Under the pieces are notes generated by a model. The model saw nothing but the letters and a program-made list of their open reading frames with translations, ran no database searches and was not told the DNA's origin. A stretch of 53,689 nucleotides of DNA, counting the filler, from Dirinaria sp. TL-2023a (taxonomy: Eukaryota): assembly GCA_051941275.1 (NCBI GenBank). It is 2 parts of 2 records of this genome, joined end to end, with 100 filler letters (N's around TTAATTAATTAA, not from the genome) between each part and the next. Parts side by side here need not be neighbours in the genome. Positions count along the whole stretch, not along the records: positions 26,896 to 53,689 come from JAVEBF010000156.1; 1 more part is not named here. The stretch is one strand, 5' to 3'. Of the stretch, positions 10,775 through 53,689 are shown one piece after another (within the stretch, counting starts at the first letter, position 1; each line of letters starts with the position of its first letter). The position numbers and the translations under genes are program-made.

Positions 10775-13700
10775 TTAGATACGGCCCCCCTCCACGACCT
10801 CCCGGCCCAAAACCTCCACGACGCCACCTTGGCCGATTTTCCGCTTCTCCAATACCCATCGATCTCCCTCCTCATCGCGCTCGTGCACGTAGCTGACGCT
10901 TTCCCCGTCCTTGCTGGCGTTCCGACTGTGCTGTCCTCCTCCGCCGCCCTTGCTGGCGATCGCTTTCCCCTTGCCGTTGCTGAACAGTGAGCTCCGGGGT
11001 CGGATCTGGGTGGGACTGCCCTCGCTGCCGCTTCTGCTGTGGGACGGTGGAGGCAAGTAAGGAGCGTTCATGGCCGGGTTGCTGGGTGGTAATGAAACAG
11101 TCGTCGGCAGCGTGATCGTGTGGCTGGTGTCTGAAGCAGGGGAGTCTTCCGTTGTGCTCGAGTTGAGGCTGTAAGTGCTTGCGCCTATGTTGGTGTTGAG
11201 CATTGGATATGCTTGGCCTTGTTGCTGCTGCGGCTGGATTTGCGCGCCTGTGGCGCTGTTTGCCGGCATACCAGGGAGGGTATATGTCAATGGCGATCCG
11301 CTGCTATTGCCTGAGCTGCTGTGTAAGCTCGTGGTGCTACTGCTGCCCCAGGCTCCGCGGCGCAGTTTCATCAGCGCGGAGAGCGACATGTCGTTTTCGT
11401 TCGACTCTTCAAGGGTCATCATGTCCGCGAGCTGGGCTAGCCCGGGGCTGGGTTGCGAGAGTGCAGAAGTAGGATAGCCGTGCATGGCAAGGGAGATGGC
11501 GGAATTGCGATTCGACCACTCACTGCGTTCAGTAATGGGCGTGAGAGCAGGTTCAACGTTCCGTCCACTATGAGTGCGATTGACGCCAGGACCGAAGTAG
11601 CCACCGTTGGTATATTCGTCAGAACCGCCAGTCTTCCGAGCATAGAAACCGAACTCTTGGCCATAGAAGTCTTCATCATCGTTTTCGAGTGCTTCCGCGT
11701 TTGCAGCGGCAATGATAGCATCGTCTGACGCAGCGTCATCGAAGTCGTATTCGTCTGAGCCAGAGACGTTGGGGAGAGGGTAGCCATTGATTTCAAGGCT
11801 CGGACTCTCGCCAACGGGTGGGAAAGGGTCCAGATGCTTGCTTTCGGGGCTAAGCGGGTCGTTGGATTGATCGGATTGCAGGCTTGCTCGACGCATGAAT
11901 TTACCGTTCATTGCTGCCTGGTTGGCTGCTATTGCTAATGCGTCGTGATAAGCTGCGAGGTTGTCCTGGGTCAGGCCTGCTGTGTGGCTGAATACTGGAC
12001 GAGATGCTTGGGTGAGATCAGGTAATGAGTCTCGCAGCTCAGCTGCAATATTCTCGTCGCCCACTCCATCGCTATCTTCGGTCAAAGCGACTTCTGGATA
12101 TAGTCCCCGCTGCCCTTCAGGATTTAGTGCTGAGGTTTCCCCATTCATATCTGAAAGCTGAGATTTTGGTTGGTCTCTGATTGGTAGCCCATATACTCTG
12201 CTTGTTTCATCATCGAATACCGACTCATCAAAAATCTGCTCATTGGTACCATCAAGATCCTCAATCATTCCATCATCAAAATACATGTCATCCTCGGGAT
12301 ACTCGTCGCTTCGAAGATGAGCAGTTAGGGCCCCCTCAAGAGGTTTAGCAGGCAGCTGGTCGTTAGATGGTATCTCAAAATCATTGTCGATCGTAGTTCC
12401 TGACTCTCGTTGTGACCGATGATCTTCGTCCGAGTATTCATGCGACACTGGGGAGTCTTCATCCTTTGCAGTGTTTGGAGACGACTCGGGTACTGCAAGT
12501 TTTGCAGGCTGATTGTGGACGTCCTGCGGTGAAATAGGCGAAAAGCCCTCACTGACCGGGCTCATTTGACTGGCGAAAATGGGCTTCGAGGCTGGCTCAA
12601 ATCGAGGAGGTTCCATGGCAGGCATACCCGGACCCGAGAGTGGTATGTCCTCTACCTCATCGGCATTGACGCCTGGTATCCTTTCTTCAAGCCCATCGTC
12701 GTCAAAATCCTCAAGATCAGGATCTTGCTCATCATCTGACTCGTACCTATGGAAGGACTTGCGAGATCCCGTACTTGTTCGCGCCTTTTCTTTCGCCTTC
12801 TGCCTATGTTTCTCTTCCAAGAGCTTCTCCTGAGCAGCGGACCCTACGCCAGCAAGATCGAAGCTAAACCGTGAGGCACGCGAAGCATTGCTCTTGAAGT
12901 GAGTAGGTAGACCTGCTGGAGTGAATGAGGCATCCGTATCAGATGACGCCCTTGAGCGTGCTTTTGATGGCGGCGAAGTCGGTGGAGAAGGAACGGGAGA
13001 TAAATCTTTTGGTAGAATGCCTGACGTTGCGGTCTCTGCCACGACTTCCAAAGGAGCTCGCGGTGGTGACGCTATCCGCTGGATGGGCTCTGGATCCCCT
13101 GGAAAATCCGCAGGGAGGTTTCTAGCAAATGCGGGCAAAGAAGAACGATCCGGTTCAGTATAGGGTTCTTGAACAGCAACTTTGTACATGAATGCAGACT
13201 TTTGTCTTTTGCTTGATCCTTCTCTACCATCCTGCCAAGGTTCAGCATCGTCATCAAAATTCTCTTTGAATACCGGAGTATGCTCCTTCTCAGTACTACT
13301 AGGAGACCGTTCATAAGGTACTGGAGCGGAATCGGAACCCTGCCGTGAGCCATGGCTTGATTTTGGCGGGCTTTGATTGCTCTGTGCCGATCGAGGAACA
13401 CTGAAGTCATGAACGCCCTTGCCACGTATTCTGGGATCGTAGTCGTCGGGAAGCCGCAGGGCTGGAATAGCGGCATCGTTCAACTTGGAGTATTTCTCTG
13501 ATGCTTCCACTACCCTCTGAGATGAACGCCTTCTGGCGAGCAAAGACATGGGGTTCAGAAGGTTAAGCTTATTCTTGCCTGAACGTGAGGTATTTGCATA
13601 CGGTCTCCGATGAGGTGGAGATTTGGGAGGTGGAGGTGGCACTGCTAGCTGCTGGAAATGCGGAGGCATAAGAGGGCCGTGCATAGGTCCTGGAACGTCC

Positions 13701-14233
13701 TGTGGATGGGACGCAGGCGAAGGTCGTGTAGGATCGTAGAGCTCGCCAGCGAGCCTGACCGGATTACTCTGAGGAGGTCGAGGTTTCCATTCAGGAGCCT
13801 CCGGGGGAGAATCTGCTACTCGATCTTTCGAGATTCTACGTCGATGGTCCTTGAGACCGAGTCCTGGTGGCCGTATGCCTCTCAATTCTGAGGTTTGGGA
13901 TGCCGATCTCGGCCTTTGCATGCTATTTTCCGTGGATTTTCCTGGCTGAAACGAGTCGGCCTCTTCCATCTGTAGCTTCGGCTCTTCCTCTTTTTCATGC
14001 TCAGAACGGGAGGCAACGCGAGGTATCGGCGGTAGTATTGGAGGGACGGGGGACACAGGCGAGGGACTGTTGGCGTCAAGTATCGCTTGTGGAGCGGGAA
14101 GGTGAGAGGATTGCAATTGAGGTAGAGGAGCATCGTGGTAGGATCTTGCCGATGTGGCATCGTGTGGAGTAGTCACTGGAGGAATGGCCGATCTTCGGCT
14201 GTTGGGACGAATGCCATGAAGGTAGGAGAACAT
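10775..14233 (-). CDS. Large Ser/Pro/acidic disordered hypothetical protein (1152 aa)
   Basis: Intact 1152-codon ORF with protein-like islands (LNPMSLLARRRSSQ, LPDDYDPRIRGKGVHDFS, EPALTPITERSEWSNRNS, SLSALMKLRRGAWG, EVVEGGRI). No catalytic domain recognised. Confidence 0.85.
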   Translation of the reverse strand: MFSYLHGIRPNSRRSAIPPVTTPHDATSARSYHDAPLPQLQSSHLPAPQAILDANSPSPVSPVPPILPPIPRVASRSEHEKEEEPKLQMEEADSFQPGKSTENSMQRPRSASQTSELRGIRPPGLGLKDHRRRISKDRVADSPPEAPEWKPRPPQSNPVRLAGELYDPTRPSPASHPQDVPGPMHGPLMPPHFQQLAVPPPPPKSPPHRRPYANTSRSGKNKLNLLNPMSLLARRRSSQRVVEASEKYSKLNDAAIPALRLPDDYDPRIRGKGVHDFSVPRSAQSNQSPPKSSHGSRQGSDSAPVPYERSPSSTEKEHTPVFKENFDDDAEPWQDGREGSSKRQKSAFMYKVAVQEPYTEPDRSSLPAFARNLPADFPGDPEPIQRIASPPRAPLEVVAETATSGILPKDLSPVPSPPTSPPSKARSRASSDTDASFTPAGLPTHFKSNASRASRFSFDLAGVGSAAQEKLLEEKHRQKAKEKARTSTGSRKSFHRYESDDEQDPDLEDFDDDGLEERIPGVNADEVEDIPLSGPGMPAMEPPRFEPASKPIFASQMSPVSEGFSPISPQDVHNQPAKLAVPESSPNTAKDEDSPVSHEYSDEDHRSQRESGTTIDNDFEIPSNDQLPAKPLEGALTAHLRSDEYPEDDMYFDDGMIEDLDGTNEQIFDESVFDDETSRVYGLPIRDQPKSQLSDMNGETSALNPEGQRGLYPEVALTEDSDGVGDENIAAELRDSLPDLTQASRPVFSHTAGLTQDNLAAYHDALAIAANQAAMNGKFMRRASLQSDQSNDPLSPESKHLDPFPPVGESPSLEINGYPLPNVSGSDEYDFDDAASDDAIIAAANAEALENDDEDFYGQEFGFYARKTGGSDEYTNGGYFGPGVNRTHSGRNVEPALTPITERSEWSNRNSAISLAMHGYPTSALSQPSPGLAQLADMMTLEESNENDMSLSALMKLRRGAWGSSSTTSLHSSSGNSSGSPLTYTLPGMPANSATGAQIQPQQQQGQAYPMLNTNIGASTYSLNSSTTEDSPASDTSHTITLPTTVSLPPSNPAMNAPYLPPPSHSRSGSEGSPTQIRPRSSLFSNGKGKAIASKGGGGGQHSRNASKDGESVSYVHERDEEGDRWVLEKRKIGQGGVVEVLGREVVEGGRI

Positions 14234-14423
14234 GGTGAATGTTGGTAGCGAAGGACAAGAGGAGAGCAGTAGAAGGAGGAGGATGACGAGAGAACAAGGA
14301 TGATCTTAGGGATTGGCCATGACGGAGGAGCCAGCAATTGTCAGTCAAGGTGCCAATACCTTGATGAACGTGGCTGATGGGACGTTTGCACAGATAGAAG
14401 ATACGAAGCAAGGTGAGGTCGAC

Positions 14424-20693: not shown

Positions 20694-23012
20694 ATGGAAG
20701 GTGCCAGCCAGGGCAATCAATTTCATTTTGCAGTGGTGGTTCCAGACCGGCGACCAAGGGCATGGGAACGCGCACCAAGAGCATCATTTGCAAGTCGGCA
20801 TCGCGGGAGGAAAGTTTGGAAGCGTTATGAACTGCGACAGATTGATGGTCCGCCTCGAAAGGCTGAACCAAATCCACAACCTCTCTCCGAAAACACAGAA
20901 AGCATCGTGGGCACGCCAAACCGAAGACCAGTGAAGCGGCTGCGCAATGCGCCCCGATCCGGAAAGAAGGAAGGAGCGCCCGACGCCACACAATATATTG
21001 CTACTCTGTGTGAGAAGGCACCCGCAACACCTAAAAGTACTGTATACCCTCAGACCTTCGCATTTTGACAGAGACAATGTAGCCAAAGAAGGAGAAGCCT
21101 AACAATGTGGTGCTTTCTAGGAAAATGCGCAAGGCGCAAGAGTTTGAAACCGGATCTCTTCAGGAAAGCAGTGGCTAAGCAAAGCCCAACCAAGCAACAT
21201 TCCACTGGTCCTACGACACCGGTCTCTGCCCACCATTGCGATGCGCCATCGCCTCTGCTACAATTGAACTCCAAATCTCAGCCTGAGCTGGCTGATGAAC
21301 CTACGTCGCCGACACGCAAGGAAGTGGAAGAGGATGCGCTTAAGGCAGAAGAAGGGCCTTCTTGGGAAGACGTGGAGATCGCATTGGGAGTCGCAGTGTC
21401 CACCGATCTGGCAAACATTGGGCTCGCCGTTCAGCTAGAGCATCAGCATGTTTCGGCCAAGGCGCAAGTCATCGAAATTGTCTCCAGTGACACTGCAGAT
21501 GGAGGCCTGCCAACATATGAGGTTGCTACTGCACAGTCCAGACCTGATGAGCCTTTTGAGACGAGTCAAGAGCCATTCATTGAGGATGAAGAGATTACTA
21601 TCTGTTTGCCCGAAGAGATTCGAACTCCTTCTCCAAGATTCTGCAAGGACTCAACTCCTCCATCGTCGAAACGCGTAGTTTCGATCACGACACGAGAAAT
21701 CACACTACCCAAGTATGAACAAGTTGATAAGCCGAGAGTAGTGCAACCCGCTTCCGACCATGAAAGCGTGCCAACCAAGAATGCCGATTACCTATCTCCT
21801 ACTTTGAGTCCGGAACGAACGTCTGACGCACAAGGAGAGGGAAATGTTTCCATCAATGATCCTACAATACTTTCAAGTGTCCAGGAAGCTCCGGTCACGC
21901 CTAATACTGAAGGTGACACAATCTCGCAGTCGGACGAATTGAGTCAAAACGACAAAAATCACGCCATACCAGATGAAAATGGCTTCAATGATTTATCCCA
22001 TCCGGTCGGAGACGAGTCCGCTCACCCGTCTGTGGCAGTGGCCTATGTGAATCTTAGTCCCCAATTGGAAGACTCAAACTTTATCCCTCAGCAGAACGAG
22101 GGCGATGTATCACAGGGTTCAACTGAAAGCGCTGTTGATCTATCGCAACCCATAGATGACGCAATTGCTTCTCAAGCCATGCCTGCTAAGACGACTCGCT
22201 CGGGAGCTCGTTTTAGCGACGACACGAATCTGCTGAAAGACTTCTTGAACCGAGCACAAGCCAAGAAGCTCACAAAGGATCTCGGCATGCCGGAGAACGA
22301 GCTATCTGCCATGTCCCCACGACGCTCCCCACGGAAAGCCCTCGCCGAATGTACAATCAATTCTCCATCCCCACGGAAAATGCCGGATCTCGCCGGTCGA
22401 CCCGGCACGCCTCCGGGAATGCAGCGACTGGATGCATTCACCTTGGATGACGCTGATGAGCTTAGTGGGGAGCCGATGTCGTGTCGACGCAGCACACGAA
22501 TCCGTTTGCCCGCACCACCACGGCTCCCTCCAGGCGCTCCCAGCTTTATCCCTGTGCGGAGAGCCGATAGGACAGAGCCTGTGGTGCTGCTGCAGAAATC
22601 GGTGGCCCAAGACCTGGCGGTGCAGACCCGCGCAAATACTCGGCGCAACAAAGGGCAGTCGAAGCCGCCTAGCGTAGCGCTGCAGCATCTGACAGCGGAA
22701 ACGGTGGAGACGATATGCTCCCATGCGCAGGCCAATGAAAAGGCGAAGTCGGTAGGCTGGGATGAGCGGCTGGTGTACTACTACTGTCGAGACTCACAAG
22801 ATGGCCCAGCGCCGACACCGGCACCGGCACCGGCACCGGCACCGTCATCGGTGGTAGCAGAAGAGGGGAGGGATTCTGAAAAGCGACCCAAAGTGCGCAG
22901 ACTACGTGGATTGGGAGCTGCGAACGGCACGCCAGCGCCCAAGAAGATAATGGCCAACGTCTCTGCTCCTGCTGGGACGCCGGCGCCAAAACGACGAGGA
23001 CGGCCGCGGTGA
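20694..23012 (+). CDS. Hypothetical disordered protein (~744 aa), 2 exons
   Basis: Exon 20694-21036, 84-nt intron (GTACTG...CTAAC...TTCTAG), exon 21121-23012 in matching phase. Islands RRPRAWERAP, DDTNLLKDFLNRAQAKK, TRANTRRNKG, KSVGWDERLVYY. Confidence 0.78.
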
Positions 23013-44907: not shown

Positions 44908-46235
44908 GCTTTATCCAGAGAGTATCCAAATGAATTGAGCGGTAAGGAGGGCTCGATGTATGAGGACTCGAAGATCGATGGCTTTCGGTGAGATAGATTA
45001 TCTATGGTAAATTTGGTGACATAGAAAAAGGATGGTAATAGTAATATGATAGGAAAGAGGATGAAGCTCCAAGGTGCTAGGCGGCTTGCTTATATAGACA
45101 GAGACGGCAAGCCGCAAGCACGGAAGTACGGAAGGGAGAAAGCATACACAAAACTATGCTTTCTGGTAATTGCGTCCTGGAATCCTTAGTGAAAGATATT
45201 CAGTCTTGGAGTAAAGAGACGATCTGCAGATATCCCATTATCAGCCGTAAACAGACGGCAATAACCGCTGCGAACCGACGACGAGGATCTGATGCTATCT
45301 CACAACTGAGAGATATACTGCAGATGGTGCAGTAGCTCAGTATTTACCTCTTTGCACAGGGAACCCATAGGTGGATCAGTGTATGGCATCGCTAATCACA
45401 TACGCCGTGGTAGGCACACATGGTTTCCACTTGGAACAGAAGCGTATTCCATCCTGAGAACGTGGAAGTGGTTTAGATGTCCTTGCATTGCTCCTTCGGG
45501 AATGATTGCAGTGCCGAGTTCCGGGTATCAAGTATGCTCTGGCCGAGATACCCCCACGAACCAGTGGATTTATGTTCCCTGCACAAGGTGAACACGGTTA
45601 TTGTACAGGGGTATGCCTGACATAGATATGAAATCTCGCTAGTGTCGGGCGCACCAGGTGCGAGCTTTGCAATACGGAGGTCAATAGCACGCATACCTAT
45701 TGATTGTACATACTTTTTAGTAGGTGATGAAGTGATCTCAATGATGTCGCTTAAACGACGCGCTAGCGGCTTGATAAGGCTGACTCCGAGGTTCCGCCGA
45801 AGTACTACCGAAAGTAAAGTAGTACTCCAATTTCCCAATTTGCCTCCTTTTATTCACATATGAGAGCAGGCATCCACCAGATGACACCAACAAAGATGAC
45901 GTACGAAGAGCTCTGTTACATATGTTGAGACAGCTTTGCAGCGGGCACAGAGTCGTGGAACGACTTGAGGCCGTGGATGCAGAGAGAATATGAGCCCGGT
46001 TTCAGAGAATTAGATCGTATCGGAGTGTACGCCTACCCTCCTATGAGAATCTCTTTGTTCTGCTCAAAGAATGGCACAACACTCTACTCTCGAAATCAAT
46101 GTTCAACCTTTCATTCACGTCCCAACGTGATTTGAGTAGCACTTAGAAGCCTTTAGGCTACTGTGGAAAGTAGCGTCGCGCTGCCCGAGTTTCACGAGAT
46201 CAGGGTCCACTTTTGGTTGGTTTAGTTGCCTGCCC

Positions 46236-47585
46236 TCATACGCTCTCGGCAGCAGTCTCTCCATTTGCTCGCCAATGTTCAAGAGCAACGAATTCCGAGG
46301 CTATGTGAGAATCCGAAGGTCTACGTGCTCGAGACTTGCTCTCAGTTGGCTTCGTGACCTGAATATCTTGTACAGGCACTAAGTGATCAAAATCGCTACC
46401 TTTTTCGGTGGTCCTCAGATTGCGATTATTTACCAAAGGCCGACGGCTGATAGTTTTGTTGATCCTGGCGACTCTTCGCCGCAGGGGTGGGATTGAGGCG
46501 ATGATAATACCGAGACTTTCCTCAAGGCTCGACCAAAGTCAGTTCCTCAAACTCTTGCTTGTAACTTAGCTCCAGAGACTTACCTAGCCCATATCTCGAC
46601 TGGAACCAGTTCCCCTATGGTCTCATCAATTGCCACGATCTGGGATGCAAGATTGAAGTAAGGTATACATACAAGTCATGTCTTGACTTCTTACTTTAAT
46701 GAGTACCGTCTTCGCGATCGAGCATGCAGCAGTACTTATGCTCCGGTCAGTAAGGCCCTGACGAGGAAGAGCTTCCAATGACAAGTTCTCACAATGTGCC
46801 TAATCCTAAGACCACCCCAATCGCCACTTTAGTTCTTGGATTCATTCGTACCCCACGGATAATGAATAGTGGCAGCAACACACAAAGAAAATCTGTAACG
46901 ACACCGAAAGCTGTCGGAGATTTAGTCGTCTGATGTACTCTTGATTCGGTGCAATTTACCACTGAAGGCTTTAGAGATCTTTTCAACGTCTGATGGCTTA
47001 ATACAATGAGCCTTAATTTCGGGATCCCAAAAACCCTGTATCGGAATGCACTGAAGACACAAGAGTAGCACATTGGCTACCGTCAAGAAGCTCAGTGTGA
47101 TCATGAAGCCCACAAAGATTTGTCGGATAGCTTTATTTGTCCCTGCGATCATTCGAAGAACGAAGAAGCATACAGAAATCTTGACGAAACAAACGCCAAT
47201 GACAACGTGGATTTCCGACGATGCAGTCCATTTCGCAGTCTCTACCAATTGGGCTTTGCTCAAGTAATAGACGTGTCGGCCGTACCCAGCACGAACTTGA
47301 AGCGTAATCAAGGACGAGCCGACAGTGTTTGATGCCTGATGGGCAACAGAGTCAGTGTCAGTCCATGGGAGTTGCGGATTTTCACCGGATCCTAAGTATC
47401 TAGCGTACAAGGGCAGCCAAAATCGTATAATCATCCCATCCCAGGACAACTGAAGGGATTGTGCGGAAAGATATACGCAAAGCAACAACGACCACAGCTA
47501 TGCAGGTTTCTGTCCACACTATGCAAAGTACTAAAGGTCCTCGACTGGTATTCGGGGGTAGCGGAGATGGTAGCTGGCTTGACAT
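46236..47585 (-). CDS. PTH11-like / rhodopsin-domain integral membrane protein without CFEM domain, 6 exons
   Basis: Exons 47585-47409, 47335-46960, 46910-46793, 46734-46673, 46614-46584, 46527-46236. Motifs GWDDYTI, GYGRH, KISVCFFVLR, QCIPIQGFWD, TDFLCVLLP, EESLGIIIASIPPLR. Confidence 0.85.
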
Positions 47586-49392
47586 ATGGGCTCTGTCGCC
47601 GTAGATTGGTCCTTGGGGTCAAAAAAGAGAAAAACATCGCATCAACAAATTGTGGTAAAGAAGGTTCATAGATGCCCAGTAAGAATGGGCAGAAGGCCTG
47701 CATTGGTCGACACTCCGAGTCCCTGGGAGTTCGGTGTTTGTCCGCTTTAAGACACGGCCGCCTCCACGCACACCAGTTGTGGACGTGTACTGGTGGAACA
47801 GGGTACACGATCCCCCAGATATAAGTGTTGAATGGGAGCAGCCATTGAGGATCACGACGCCGGACAACGCCGAGACATTATCATCTGTCTGCATGGCAGG
47901 ATCAGATGTCAGGCAAACTATGATTTTGGCAGCTAACCCTGCGCCGGAAGACATGCTGAGGTGTGGTAGCGGTACGGAGGACCCTATCATGAGTTCTGGC
48001 TAGCGTGATCACCGCCACTGATCCGGCGATTAATTGGTAATCGCCCCGGGGACCAGTCAGAACCCAGCTACAGGCGCCTTACAGTACACTCGCGCTGATC
48101 GCGGACTTCGGGTGTGGTTCTCCGTACAATGCACGGCCAATCTTGACACAATCTCACATTGCCAAACTAGGTCACCTGCATGACGTATATACTACAGCTG
48201 TGCGAATAATTTGATCGGAGTGCGGTTGGGAAGTTTGTCTAGTCATGCTGGCAGCAGAAGAGCCCAGCGTACTTTGAATCGAAGACAATGTCGGTGTGTC
48301 TCGTGTGTTGAGGTCTGTTCATCCTAAACTAGGAAAAAAAGAAAGAGACGAACAATGATGGCTTGTTCTGATGGTTAGCTGATGTTCATCGATAGTTGGA
48401 GACATGGTCCGACCGAGCTGTTCCGCAAGGGACGGGGAGACGGGCTACACTCTCCACAAAGCAACACCATCATCCATTTCCCGCGCTGCAGGAAACGTTC
48501 AATCGTCGATCTACTCTAATGGAGGCCCAGCATTAAATTAGGCAGTTAAGAAATCCTGCTCAAACGACATCCTCCAAGGTTCGCAAATAACGTCATCAGG
48601 CCACGCGGTGAGCATCTAAGCAAACGTACTAGCGATGATTTGTAACAAGCCGATCAGAGGCAACTGCGGTCCTCATATTTGTGTACCCAGTATCACCATT
48701 TAATGGACGGTACTAAGAAATACCCAGCTAGGTAACATGGAGAGAAAAGTTTGGCTGGCTCTTTGACAAGATTCTGCCTACGGCCCACAATGTGCATCAT
48801 CAGCTCCACCCATAAAACTTCTAGGTCCAGTACCATGATTGTATTTCTCTCTCAAATCCCATTTCATCTCGAGTGCCCACTTCTCCTGATCACTTAGCTC
48901 TCCGATCTGCCACCGCTTTCCCAACCGAAGCTTGCTACTTCTACTCTTTTCCACCTACTGAATATGAACATTCCATTCTCCTCACCTTGACAGGTTTTCC
49001 CTGAGTGGACTTCACTTCACTATCGAAACAGAAGACCAGATCACTTTCTACAATTTATTTGAGATCGCTTGGTCTCTTATAAGTCGACTTCATTGATCTG
49101 ACCAGACTCGAATCCAGATACCAACCAAGTGCCAATCCACATTTCCTGCTGATTCCATCATGAAGTATGGGATCTGAGCTGTTCAGGAACCAGGATTCCT
49201 AGTTTCTGCCAGATGTCATGGGATTCAGCAGTTACAGTAAGTAGCAGATGAAATCCAATTGATAAACAGTGATGGTGGGAAAAAACATCTGAATATATGT
49301 TGCAGCATGTAAATCAATGTCAGTCAAAGTGAATTGTGACCATCACTTTCAACAACTCTATTTTTTTTTTCTCTTTTCTTCCTGGCTGTGAA

Positions 49393-49419
49393 TGTTTGTT
49401 TGTTTGTTTGTTTGTTTGT
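49393..49419. repeat. (TGTT)6 microsatellite
   Basis: Tetranucleotide run read directly. Confidence 0.9.
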
Positions 49420-50397
49420 ACACTGCACAGCCATGTGATCGGAGTGTGATGCATAGTTCACCTGCACATTCCTAGTGCATACCTAGCCAGAACACCACAA
49501 AAATTAACATATAAAGAACTTTTTCCGTCCTTCCCATCCATTTGAAACCCCCCACACCTATGTCAAAATAATACACTTTCGCTTCACTATTCCATCATCA
49601 AAGTCCACTATTATCCTCTTTTAAAGTAATCTGTCGCGATAAATAAACCCCTAACTCGCTCACACTTACATTACAACTCGCAATCCACAGACCGAATTTC
49701 TCCTGCACTTTATAAATGAATATAGTACTATATTACTGCTGCTTAACAGATCCTCTATTTCCTTTATCTCTATCTAAAAAATCGATCTTCACTCGCTCGC
49801 CCACTCATTATACTGACTGACTGACGGAATGAATATATATCCTTGACTTTATACAACATAACCCTTCCTTCGACCTCGCCGTGACGCAACTATTGATCTG
49901 AACTGAATATTTTTTCGATTCGCTATGAATATACATACTCGGAAAAAAGGAAGGGGGGGTTTCGAGGTATTTAAGGATGGGGGCTTCGAGGGCAGAAACA
50001 TTCTCTTATTTTTTCTTCGTTTCCTTGCTTCAGCTTTCTCGGCTTTCTTCTTTGGTATACCACTTGGGATTTTGGTATATCATTGCGAACTCTTGATGAG
50101 CTTTTGGTTTTGGGAGAGCTCCTCGACTTGGGTCGAGCTTTGATTCGATTCTTCAAGTCTCTGCTTCAGCATCTTGAATCGTACCATTCTTGCTCTGGGA
50201 AAAAAAACCGGTCTTGCATTGGTTTCGTACGGTCACGCTTTGGTATATCGTGAATCACTTCCACACTCCTGGCTTCGGATCTCTCTGGCTGGATCTTGGT
50301 TGGGGATTTGCACAGTCGATTGTCAAGTCTTTATTGCTTTTCCCTGGAAACTCGGTCTTCCCCTCATATCTGCTCGAGCAATTTACCTCCTTTCACA

Positions 50398-51797
50398 ATG
50401 GCACCCTCCCAGGATCGCAAGCTTGTGCAGACCCAACTGCCGGAAGCTTTTAGGAAGATCAGCAAGGGCTTCCGAGTGGAGAAGTCCAAAGCTCACGTCA
50501 ACAAGTCCTCCCAGCTTGCTCGCTCAAGGAAGGAAAGACCAGTCGCGGCAATCTCAACAGCTGGTCCAGTTCTGGTTGACGGGGGAGAAGAAACAATTGG
50601 TGATGGAGCTCACCAGGCGGTATGCTCGGTGAGAGTGCTTCAGACCGAGTCATCGGCCTTCTTCGAAGGTCCGATCAAGGAAGTCACGAAGACGAAGGAA
50701 GCTGCCGATAAGTATCGGTCAGATGCAGCCGAGTATCCCGTTGTCCGAGACAGCACGGTCGTCAAATGTCAAGACGGACGACCGCTCCTATACATAATCA
50801 AAGGCGGGATGTTTGCAGGGCTGTCTGCCGATGAGCAGCAACATCTGAGCATGCAATCAACGAAAGCGATTCAGGACCTCGTGGAAGCCTACGAACCGCC
50901 TGCGCCAACGGCTTCTGATCCTCGTGCAAGACAGGATCGAGAAGAGCAGAGCGCGAAGTGGAAAGCGAGAGGGAAACCGTGGGGTCGATACGTGAGTTTG
51001 CAATTCTACTGATGCATACGCAGTACTAACCACTCATGTAGTATTTCGCATACTAGTATGGAACAGGCCAAAGAGGTGTCCGACCACCTGTGATATCCAC
51101 CCACAGCAAGCCACAACGGAAAGAAGGAGTGCAGAGTGTCGCCGACTACATGCGGGCCACGGCTTGGGAGCACACGCAAGTCGCCAGATGGCTCTCGGTC
51201 ATAGACTCTGAAAGGCACCTGGAGCTACACAGCCGTTACCAGGGACTAGGGCAAGAAGAGCTAAAGCATCTCTATCAGGGAGAGCATGCGTGCCATTCCG
51301 GTCTTGCTTTCCTCGTGAATCTGTCTGTGGAGCCACACAAAGACTCCAACGATGCCAAGGATAGTTGGACCAGCACGAATGTCTGGGGAGAGTTTCGGGG
51401 TGGGCATGTAGTCTTCCCGGACCTGGGCCTTCGAGTTGCTCAAGAGCCCGGCGACTTGATCCTCAGCCATGCAGCCATCCCGACGCATTTGGTCGAGGAT
51501 GTGGAGGACGGAGAGCGCTTCTGCAATGTTCGCTTCACAAAAGAAGATATCTTGCGACCTCCACCTTCGAAGCCGGACCTTGCTATCCCGTGCCCAGTCG
51601 CAGGCTGCGCTAGGCTTTGTCGCTCCTGGTCTGCTCTCGCGAAGCATATCAGAGGCCCCCCGGGAAAGCTTCGTGACAAGGCAAGCAAAGGCCACTATCA
51701 CCTCCTCGACAGACAAGAAGCAAGGGAGAAAATGGTGCAAGCTCGGGCAGCATACAATGCTGATAGTACGGGTCTACAGGAAGCCCCTTCGGCATGA
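50398..51797 (+). CDS. TET/JBP-family-like 2OG-Fe(II) dioxygenase with C-terminal C2H2-like zinc finger; possible pseudogene
   Basis: Exon 50398-50991, intron GTGAGT...CTAAC...TAG (50992-51041), exon 51042-51797. Motifs N-x5-HKDxxD, GEFRGGHVVFPDLG...PGDLIL, distal His, R-x5-F, then C-x4-C-x12-H. In-frame TAG at 51054-51056. Confidence 0.75.
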
Positions 51798-53199
51798 GGC
51801 CGGCGAAACGCTATTGGCTCCGGGGAAGATTTGGAAAAGAGATTGAAGAAAGCTTAACGTTTGGAATATAAGGGTTAGTTATTGGGCATGGCTTTGACTT
51901 AACGAGATGTTTTATGATATTGCTTTGATTAAGTGCCAACTTGAACTGCACAGTGGCAGCTTTTAATGAAGTAATTTGACGAAAGAAGCAAGCACTTACC
52001 GAATAAACACTTTGAGAATGGCTGGTCTCAGGTTGCTGGTCTCTACAGCGGTGCTGCATGCCTGATTCAGCTAGATCTCGTTTTAGTAACGTAAGTCACC
52101 TCTTTTCCCTTGAGAGCGGCATTCCTCAAACGTGTTAGAACCTTCGAATGAGATATATGGAGGGAAATCTTCTTGTTACTAGATCATGATATCTTTGGGC
52201 TCACGGCATTTGTGGGACTGTACCGCCAAAAGGAAAAGGAAAGGCATGTCCACAAAAAACTCCAAAAAAAAAAAAAAAAAAACTCACCTTTTGGCCTATT
52301 GGGGAACTGGACAAGTTCGGTCGCTCGATGCGGAGAAGGTCCCCTACTGCCACGCCTCACCGGGCTAATTTGAGACTATCACTTTTTGACTCTTCGCGGA
52401 TTTCACATTCGTGGCGGAGGACTCCTGTTTCAGTTCCAAATTTTGTTCTTGGGAAACTGCTCGGAATCGAGGACCTCCCGAACCTTAGGTTTCGGTTTTA
52501 GAGGCCTGTCCAGAGTGCAGTTTCGATGCTTCCGATTCAGCCAAGTCTACTCGGGCAGCTAGTTGGGGAATTTTCTCTTATTTTCGTAGATGTTCAGTAT
52601 TTGAAGATATGTATGAATGCTTTTTTCTATCTGCACACAGGCGTAGTAGATTATGACCTGGTTCTGCAAAGTAGCTTTATTTTTTCTTTCTGGGAGGCAA
52701 TTAAGCATACACAGTGACACAATCTCGGACTGGCTTGGAGCGGATAAACTGTGCTTTTCATTCTGGGTGCACTGAGATATGAGGATACATTCTTCAGTAA
52801 AGCTCCCAATAGTTAGTGCAGCCTTTTAGTCTCAAGCGGTTGCCGCTTTCGGTGGAAAGACGGGCCGATATCTGGAGAAGACATCGACACATTATTATTT
52901 GGGCGCACCGACAGACCTCATGGATTAACATTACCCTTTTCGTATCTTGCTCGACCAGAGCTATACAGAACCTCTTTTGAATCATCGATATTAATCTACC
53001 GCAGCGGTTTCCTACAGGAGCAGCAAAAGCGTGTTCATAGCGAGCACCAAACTCTTCCCGCTCGTCCTGCTCCGGTCTTCTCACAACTTACAACAGCACT
53101 AAGACCGTGATATCTACGAGGGTGCATCATCGCTGCGTCTTACAGGCGCAAGGTACGTTCCCATACCACACCTGAGGCATCCAAGCACAGACGTTCATC

Positions 53200-53689
53200 A
53201 TGTCGTACCCGCCACCACCAGGTCTCAAGCAGAACCAGACTCCACCATCCTCCTCTACCCCTCCAGCCCATGCGTCCTTGCCTCCTCGCCCGCCCCCAGC
53301 AGCAGGGCCACCGCCTTCCTTCAAACCCGCCTTCAGCAATCCACCATCATTTTCTTCCGGCGCGCCAGGCACCAAGGGCTATGATGGCGGCTCCAACAAA
53401 GGCGCTGGCCCGCTATCGAGCGGCTTCGGCGGCTTCACAGGTTTCCAACCACGTTCTGTAGCAGCAAACGCTCAGCCATTCCGTACCCACAGTCCCGTGG
53501 TCTCCGCTCCACCTGCACCGCCTACCGGCTTTTCGGGACCCCATACCAATTACGCGAATGGCGTCTCCTACCAAGCCCAACCCTCGTACCCACAACCGCC
53601 CACACCTTCCTACTATCAACAAACGCAGGACCAAGCCTACCCCGAACCCACCCCCCCACAAATCCGTAACCCATTCCCTCTCCCAGATC
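53200..53689 (+). CDS. 5' part of a Pro-rich protein, truncated by the window end (N-terminus resembles fungal RBM42-like RRM proteins)
   Basis: ATCATG start, open frame to the end: MSYPPPPGLKQ...SLPPRPP...FKPAF...FTGFQPRSVA...QIRNPF. The RRM itself is not visible, so the family call is tentative. Confidence 0.65.
   Translation, partial: MSYPPPPGLKQNQTPPSSSTPPAHASLPPRPPPAAGPPPSFKPAFSNPPSFSSGAPGTKGYDGGSNKGAGPLSSGFGGFTGFQPRSVAANAQPFRTHSPVVSAPPAPPTGFSGPHTNYANGVSYQAQPSYPQPPTPSYYQQTQDQAYPEPTPPQIRNPFPLPD

Follow-up and report, generated by a model that had tools for sequence, protein, structure and literature searches.

Published accounts of fungal TET/JBP dioxygenases cover basidiomycetes and Pezizomycetes and almost always place the genes on transposons (PMC12730594, PMC13297926; here and below, statements drawn from cited papers apply to the parts of their text that were available). 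Transposon-borne members occur in Pucciniomycetes and Agaricomycetes; in the Ascomycota they are given only for Pezizomycetes, as an HxE type (Kojima 2025, PMC12730594), and a 2026 review gives the same taxonomic range (PMC13297926). CcTet of Coprinopsis cinerea (AG-type; PDB 7VPN, 7W5P, 8JKK) is bifunctional, acting on 5-methylcytosine (5mC) and N6-methyladenine (6mA) (PMC11040006), and its relatives are transposon-borne (PMC12730594). Here, we describe a two-exon gene on the + strand at 50398–51797 (ATG at 50398, TGA at 51795–51797) of a 53,689-nucleotide stretch of DNA from Dirinaria sp., the whole of which is called the window below. Dirinaria is a lichen-forming ascomycete (Lecanoromycetes, order Caliciales), in agreement with an earlier, preliminary description of the stretch that had placed the host among the filamentous ascomycetes. 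Papers from the Aravind group are said to have been the first to survey fungal TET/JBP proteins, and they may mention ascomycete members. Among the literature matches listed, which for two queries were 12 of 5,602 and 10 of 50, none was relevant to TET/JBP in lichens or Lecanoromycetes.

Judged by its sequence and predicted structure, the gene encodes a dioxygenase of the TET/JBP clade. We put the probability at roughly 0.6 that it specifies an Fe(II)/2-oxoglutarate (2OG) dioxygenase of a fungal subfamily within this clade, composed of the core, one C2H2-derived zinc element and a long helix, with 5mC in DNA as the most likely substrate, and that it is a resident single-copy gene present here as an allele with a TAG stop codon. 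The kind of enzyme is known. What is new is best filed as an architectural and taxonomic variant: from comparison and modelling, a lichen fungus has a real gene of the clade, apparently resident, whose product carries a conserved C2H2-derived tail. The Dirinaria copy is possibly disabled by the stop codon, which the public gene model hides.

Spliced from 50991 to 51057, the gene gives a product identical to a hypothetical protein of 444 amino acids (aa) at NCBI (P0001 below), whose source there is a metagenome-assembled genome (MAG) of Dirinaria sp. Tet_JBP (PF12851) was the only Pfam family matched by this protein (E 5e-5), and CcTet was its best sequence match among solved structures (E 0.004). 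An exhaustive phmmer search returned 257 cluster representatives at E ≤1e-3; of these, 94 reached ≤1e-10 and 32 reached ≤1e-30. The sole Pfam family, the best solved match and the number of representatives together place the motifs beyond chance. Conservation was read from three alignments: A1 holds 38 longer relatives, chosen among the 150 matches listed of 257, A3 holds 15 close relatives and A4 holds P0001 with the first 149 listed homologues. Tet_JBP was matched at E ≤0.01 by 36 of the 38 relatives in A1 (best 3.8e-15). Searched with the A1 profile, the solved structures were led by CcTet (2.1e-14) and the Naegleria Tet (NgTet, 5.4e-13), and the next entry was PiuC (0.076). Some relatives already carry the PF12851 tag in databases, so the family is not invisible; the named hosts are Dirinaria, Pyrenodesmia and, distantly, Sporobolomyces roseus. 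One point weighs against the assignment: the Tet_JBP score of P0001 (21.6 bits for the whole protein, 22.9 for exon 2) falls short of the curated cut-off (34.9). This cut-off is an operational threshold rather than a biochemical feature. Exon 1 alone was without any Pfam match.

The HxD...H triad and the Rx5-aromatic motif, which Iyer et al. reportedly established as the TET/JBP signature in 2009, are present in P0001 and conserved in the family. HKD (H292-K-D294) is located at 51336–51344, H342 at 51486 and R352-FCNV-R-F358 at 51516–51536, and C377-x4-C382-x12-H395 starts at 51591, all as given in the preliminary description. Its spacer of seven residues between GEFRGGHVVFPDLG (ending ...PDLG) and PGDLIL has to be corrected to six (LRVAQE). 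D294, H342 and R352 were invariant in A1, and H292 was conserved in at least 90%. The column counts in A4 were 101/114 for H292, 106/114 for D294, 98/112 for D297, 102/107 for H342, 103/109 for R352 and 87/114 for F358. The family is thereby set apart from the PE type of Pezizomycetes transposons, the sole TET/JBP described from the Ascomycota (Kojima 2025, PMC12730594; PMC13297926). According to its description, the PE type has HxE and is found in Helitron or IS3EU elements, whereas HxD (D294, 106/114) and no transposon context were found here.

The AlphaFold2 model of P0001, computed with A4 as alignment, had a predicted local distance difference test score (pLDDT) of 88.1 and a predicted template modelling score (pTM) of 0.82. 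In Foldseek, it matched CcTet (1.4e-13), NgTet (6.5e-10), CMD1 (4.4e-8) and TET2 (8.6e-6), with the first non-TET entry at 1.2e-4. VIA-align superposed residues 68–368 of the model onto residues 30–401 of the CcTet chain (Z 23.8, 267 residues, root-mean-square deviation 3.0). CcTet is hence the best match in both sequence and structure, with the whole core aligned, but at an identity of only 13–15%. The Z values were 20.8 for NgTet1 (4LT5), 20.0 for the catalytic domain of human TET2 (4NM6) and 18.2 for CMD1, while AlkB, FTO, PHD and ABH3 reached at most 13.3. An ESM Atlas search was uninformative (best scores 0.77 and 0.76).

These rankings bear on whether the protein could merely resemble a TET and in fact be a 2OG oxygenase acting on small molecules or protein side chains. 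Such an enzyme would suit the Pfam score under the cut-off and the P450 and multicopper oxidase genes near the loci of relatives (see below). However, there is a clear structural step between the TET-family entries (Z 17–24) and all others (≤13.3), the latter being led by the nucleic-acid enzymes ABH3 and FTO (both 13.3), and the TET-specific base-contact positions are conserved in the family. We consider this explanation very improbable, and the small-molecule reading was rejected on the structure ranking. The preliminary description had likewise preferred a TET/JBP-like enzyme to a small-molecule 2OG oxygenase. Both the profile and the structure matches (CcTet, NgTet, TET2, CMD1) are of the TET kind; small-molecule oxygenases were the best matches in neither, and the TETs ranked well above AlkB, FTO, PHD and the small-molecule enzymes.

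Active-site residues were mapped by a HMMER alignment to CcTet, with residue roles taken from PMC11040006. H292 and D294 correspond to the iron ligands H326 and D328 of CcTet, and H342 to the third iron ligand. R352 corresponds to R385, which forms a salt bridge to the C1 carboxylate of 2OG, and F358 to F391, which stacks on the flipped base (PMC11040006). The two proteins share the HxD...H triad, the 2OG arginine and the stacking phenylalanine. K360, the last mapped residue of this second block (H342, R352, F358 and K360; 51486–51542), takes the position of R393 in CcTet and of His1904 in TET2. In the first block (H292-K-D294, D297 and T303; 51336–51371), there are differences to CcTet. D297 takes the position of G331 in CcTet, Asp234 in NgTet1, Asp350 in CMD1 and Asn1387 in TET2, and T303 takes that of D337 in CcTet and Thr1393 in TET2 (PMC11040006). 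The pattern H-x-D-x2-[D/N]-x5-[T/S] is common to P0001 and TET2 (N1387, T1393).

In NgTet1, CMD1 and TET2, the Asp or Asn at the position of D297 makes a hydrogen bond to N4 of 5mC, and the N6-methyl group of 6mA collides with it (PMC11040006). Because D297 stands at the position that bonds the cytosine N4, 5mC in DNA is the most likely substrate. A CcTet-like 6mA capacity is not expected, as D297 and T303 replace Gly331 and Asp337 of CcTet. Going by the aligned residues, the pocket would be of the conventional 5mC type rather than the 6mA-tolerant type of CcTet. The methylated base would be flipped out of the nucleic acid to enter the active site, where the enzyme would hydroxylate its methyl group, and the zinc element and the C-terminal helix would probably add nucleic-acid contacts beside the core.

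Three points weigh against this substrate call. It depends on a single aligned loop residue, D297; CcTet, the best structural match, accepts 6mA as well as 5mC; and phage relatives in TET/JBP (5mYOX) act on T about as well as on 5mC (PMC13229309), so that oxidation of T or an RNA substrate is possible. The protein might then share the fold but act on another DNA base, either as a JBP-like thymine hydroxylase (T to 5-hydroxymethyluracil, 5hmU) or as a CcTet-like 6mA demethylase, and the substrate is not readable from the fold. With Asp where CcTet has Gly331, and with this Asp kept in 98 of 112 family members, we regard a different DNA base as possible but unlikely.

The second part of the proposed architecture, the zinc element, follows the core as C377-x4-C382-x12-H395-x17-H413 (51591–51701, with the C377 codon at 51591). 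C377, P378, C382, S388, L392, H395, Y412 and H413 were invariant in the 15 close relatives of A3. The Cys, Cys and His were aligned in 40 of the 60 A4 members with at least 30 tail residues, and the tail pattern CPxxGC-x12-H...YH was conserved in the family. When 49 tail-bearing relatives were compared with Pfam, zf-C2H2_4 was matched by 11 (best 1.9e-5), zf-C2H2 by 10 and zf-met by 7. The C-terminal Cys2-His(-His) element of the preliminary description is therefore real and conserved. Its suggestion of a delayed His in GHYH (G410–H413) as fourth ligand has also gained ground: H413 is most likely this ligand because YH is invariant among the close relatives. Folded alone (pLDDT 85.3), the tail was predicted as strand-strand-helix, a short helix and a long terminal helix. 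The strand-strand-helix of the zinc element was predicted at pLDDT 87–95, and the long C-terminal alpha-helix (residues 417–438; 51711–51776) at 94–96 in the full model.

The element shares the C-x4-C-x12-H spacing and the predicted strand-strand-helix with the classical C2H2 families (zf-C2H2, zf-C2H2_4, zf-met). Several results count against a classical finger. There is one finger only, and the 17 residues between the presumed ligands H395 and H413 are non-canonical compared with x3-5 in C2H2. The tail of P0001 itself had no Pfam zinc-finger match, and its model gave nothing at E ≤0.001 in Foldseek and no structural match in a wide VIA search (best Z 4.2). More distant relatives, however, have the ordinary H-x3-7-H spacing, and it is homologous segments with this spacing that match zf-C2H2, zf-C2H2_4 and zf-met. 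From these alignments, our call is a C2H2-derived element whose His-His loop has expanded rather than a canonical finger. A single finger gives little ground for the term "sequence-targeted" that had been used for the enzyme.

TET2 has a Cys-rich domain and a low-complexity insert, and neither is present in the Dirinaria protein. NgTet1 and TET2 bind DNA with a C-terminal helix (PMC11040006), whereas here the C2H2-derived element precedes the C-terminal helix. No zinc-finger tail was seen in CcTet, and the term "zinc finger" is absent from the available text of PMC11040006.

The finger families could also be taken as a hint at RNA, for example 5-methylcytosine (m5C) in tRNA or mRNA, with the zinc element as an RNA-binding finger. 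The fingers of 7 of the 49 relatives match zf-met and those of 2 match zf-C2H2_jaz (in Pfam, a double-stranded-RNA-binding zinc finger), and animal TETs also oxidise m5C in RNA (10.1101/2025.03.07.641893). The zf-met and jaz matches overlap with those to the general C2H2 families, though, and are weak (best 5e-4 and 3e-3), and the close structural matches are all DNA enzymes solved with duplex DNA. An RNA substrate is thus improbable in our view, and DNA remains the preferred target.

An in-frame TAG at 51054–51056, absent from the preliminary description, lies within what are the first exon-2 codons in relatives. Exon 1 (50398–50991, + strand; an open reading frame (ORF) with ATG, 198 codons, residues 1–198 of P0001) ends with ...WGRY, followed by GTGAGT at 50992. 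In two relatives (P0007 and P0010), the exon-1 ORFs terminate at the same G[RK]Y, again followed by GT. The ancestral intron of 50 nucleotides (nt) at 50992–51041 has this GTGAGT donor, a TACTAAC branch motif at 51024–51030 and its first downstream AG at 51040–51041. By translation and by the alignments of relatives, the five codons after it (51042–51056, YFAY-TAG) are the ancestral start of exon 2, and the exon after the first AG reads YFAY-TAG-YGTGQ. Directly past the end of exon 1, relatives read HFxxWxxxG in A1 and MLAFWH... or MFTYWH... in A3. The TAG is aligned with their Trp (TGG) or Gln (CAG) and is one transition away from either.

Related loci from metagenome contigs (L001–L007, described below) gave a similar picture. 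In L001, the homologous intron of 49 nt follows G-R-Y/L and ends with ACTAAC, 11 nt and TAG; exon 2 starts with HLMYQRIPG there and with HLMLQYVKG in L004. Relatives splice at the first AG past the branch point, the equivalent of which is 51041 here. The NCBI model of P0001 (50398–50991 and 51057–51797) matches the exon structure read from the sequence. Its acceptor is the AG of the TAG itself (51056), leading to an intron of 65 nt and the loss of five codons. Two other clean introns were found in the window, in the 6-phosphogluconate dehydrogenase (6PGD) and BUB1 genes. In both, the acceptor that keeps the frame is the first AG following the branch motif, whereas here it is the second – a hint only, as the comparison is a simple frame-based heuristic with two clean comparators.

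Because the TAG sits at the ancestral start of exon 2, this copy is either broken or rescued by a shifted acceptor. With the acceptor at 51041, the message would stop at codon 203, ahead of the catalytic core. With the acceptor at 51056, which the TAG created, five codons would be skipped in frame and the 444-aa protein would result. We lean towards the proximal acceptor 51041 being mainly used, meaning a recently disabled or strongly weakened allele; for a working enzyme that is five residues shorter, we see somewhat less than even odds. Two points weigh against the TAG allele as described: the contigs of an RNA library end short of the splice junction (50977–51323 is uncovered), and the TAG may stem from a mistake in the assembly of the MAG. 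For users of the database entry, this is a warning: the protein exists only via the shifted acceptor of the gene finder, which hides the stop codon. Other broken genes may be hidden likewise in ab initio models of the Dirinaria MAG.

The RNA library, from a lichen metagenome, contained contigs 87–93% identical to the window over 50110–50439, 50604–50976 and 51324–51787. Among the listed exon-2 differences to these contigs, 16 of 20 were at third codon positions (binomial p 2.5e-5 against one third; 33 further differences exist), and 16 of the 18 changed codons were synonymous. As the listed differences were mostly synonymous and at third positions, the frame has evolved under purifying selection during most of the period after the two sequences diverged. 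Hence, either the inactivation is recent or the shorter protein works. A point against an intact enzyme is P340 (51480–51482), two residues before H342, which replaces a Leu conserved in at least 90% of close homologues; an RNA contig of ~90% identity keeps this Leu. Besides L340P, no decay signal was seen at highly conserved columns, where P0001 deviates at 8 positions compared with 1–9 for 14 relatives. The RNA contigs match the region upstream of the gene (50110–50439) at ~88–90% with small InDels. Such matches would be consistent with a long 5' untranslated region; carry-over of DNA is possible.

The genomic surroundings were assessed by a Pfam scan of the largest 20 of the 48 window ORFs of at least 150 aa. 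Domains of GCFC/G-patch, GMC oxidoreductase, kinase and Mad3/BUB1 type were found, as well as an AP-endonuclease-type TIM barrel, an LSM12-type AD domain, a sugar-phosphate transporter and 6PGD. Also among them were an alpha/beta hydrolase, a methyltransferase and a protein with a fungal rhodopsin domain. None of these 20 ORFs was a transposase, which agrees with the earlier remark that no transposase was visible in the window. There were no direct or inverted repeats around the gene (46000–53689) and no second copy of it in the window, and the GC content was 0.44–0.55 throughout. The "accessory region" of the preliminary description is not supported by a window with GCFC/G-patch, BUB1/Mad3, 6PGD, AP endonuclease and similar genes, the neighbours being of the housekeeping kind.

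A scan of metagenome contigs with the A3 profile identified the seven related loci L001–L007 with 50–56% protein identity; the same contigs gave no match in a scan with the single protein. The seven loci were mutually syntenic over 16–21 kb and were flanked by multicopper oxidase, P450 and DUF7730 genes, with no transposase. Synteny between the window and these loci was not found. In L006, a 79-bp AT-rich insertion in the homologous intron (~10738–10816) was nearly the sole structural difference from L004, with 99% identity otherwise.

The same data bear on the proposal that the gene is mobile-element cargo, be it of a KDZ element, a Helitron, another DNA transposon or a Starship, that counters methylation or repeat-induced point mutation (RIP). 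In Pucciniomycetes, Agaricomycetes and Pezizomycetes, TET/JBP genes are as a rule carried by transposons (Kojima 2025, PMC12730594), which would favour it. Against this stand the lack of a transposase in the 20 of 48 ORFs scanned, of repeats in 46000–53689 and of a second copy in the window, the seven syntenic loci with flanks devoid of transposases, and the HxE motif of the ascomycete transposon type PE compared with HxD in this family. The cargo proposal is not supported, and we give it hardly any weight. The gene appears to belong to the host, resident and in single copy, rather than to be transposon cargo.

No TET-type demethylase is named for Pezizomycotina outside Pezizomycetes in the available text of Kojima 2025 (PMC12730594) and of the 2026 review (PMC13297926). 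A wider proposal, which we offer as speculative and rather doubtful, is that a TET-C2H2 enzyme for targeted 5mC oxidation is maintained as a resident, single-copy host gene in lichen-forming Lecanoromycetes and, probably, in other fungi known from metagenomes alone. This would amount to active demethylation in Pezizomycotina outside Pezizomycetes, and the Dirinaria allele would carry a nonsense mutation that creates the very 3' splice site removing it. If true, a conserved, syntenic, non-transposon TET with a zinc-finger tail would suggest that filamentous ascomycetes have host-controlled removal or rewriting of cytosine methylation. The enzyme would be compact, with two domains, and amenable to testing.

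Exon 1 (+ strand) is predicted to encode a basic disordered N-terminus (residues ~1–55) and, after it, strands and helices of the N-terminal part of the TET fold (~60–198). Exon 2 as annotated (51057–51797, + strand; 246 codons and TGA) encodes the double-stranded beta-helix core, the zinc-finger-like element and the C-terminal helix. An antisense open frame of 170 codons (51261–51773, – strand) runs over this catalytic exon. It is probably no gene, as its counterparts in related loci follow the conservation pattern of the sense frame.

Elsewhere in the window, three long open frames were without a Pfam match at E ≤0.001: 4149–7373 (– strand, 1074 aa), 10775–14305 (– strand, 1176 aa) and 21069–23012 (+ strand, 647 aa). 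The stretch with the lowest GC content of the window (0.44) has a (GTTT)n microsatellite at 49388–49420 upstream of the gene and a long A-run at 52255–52283 downstream.

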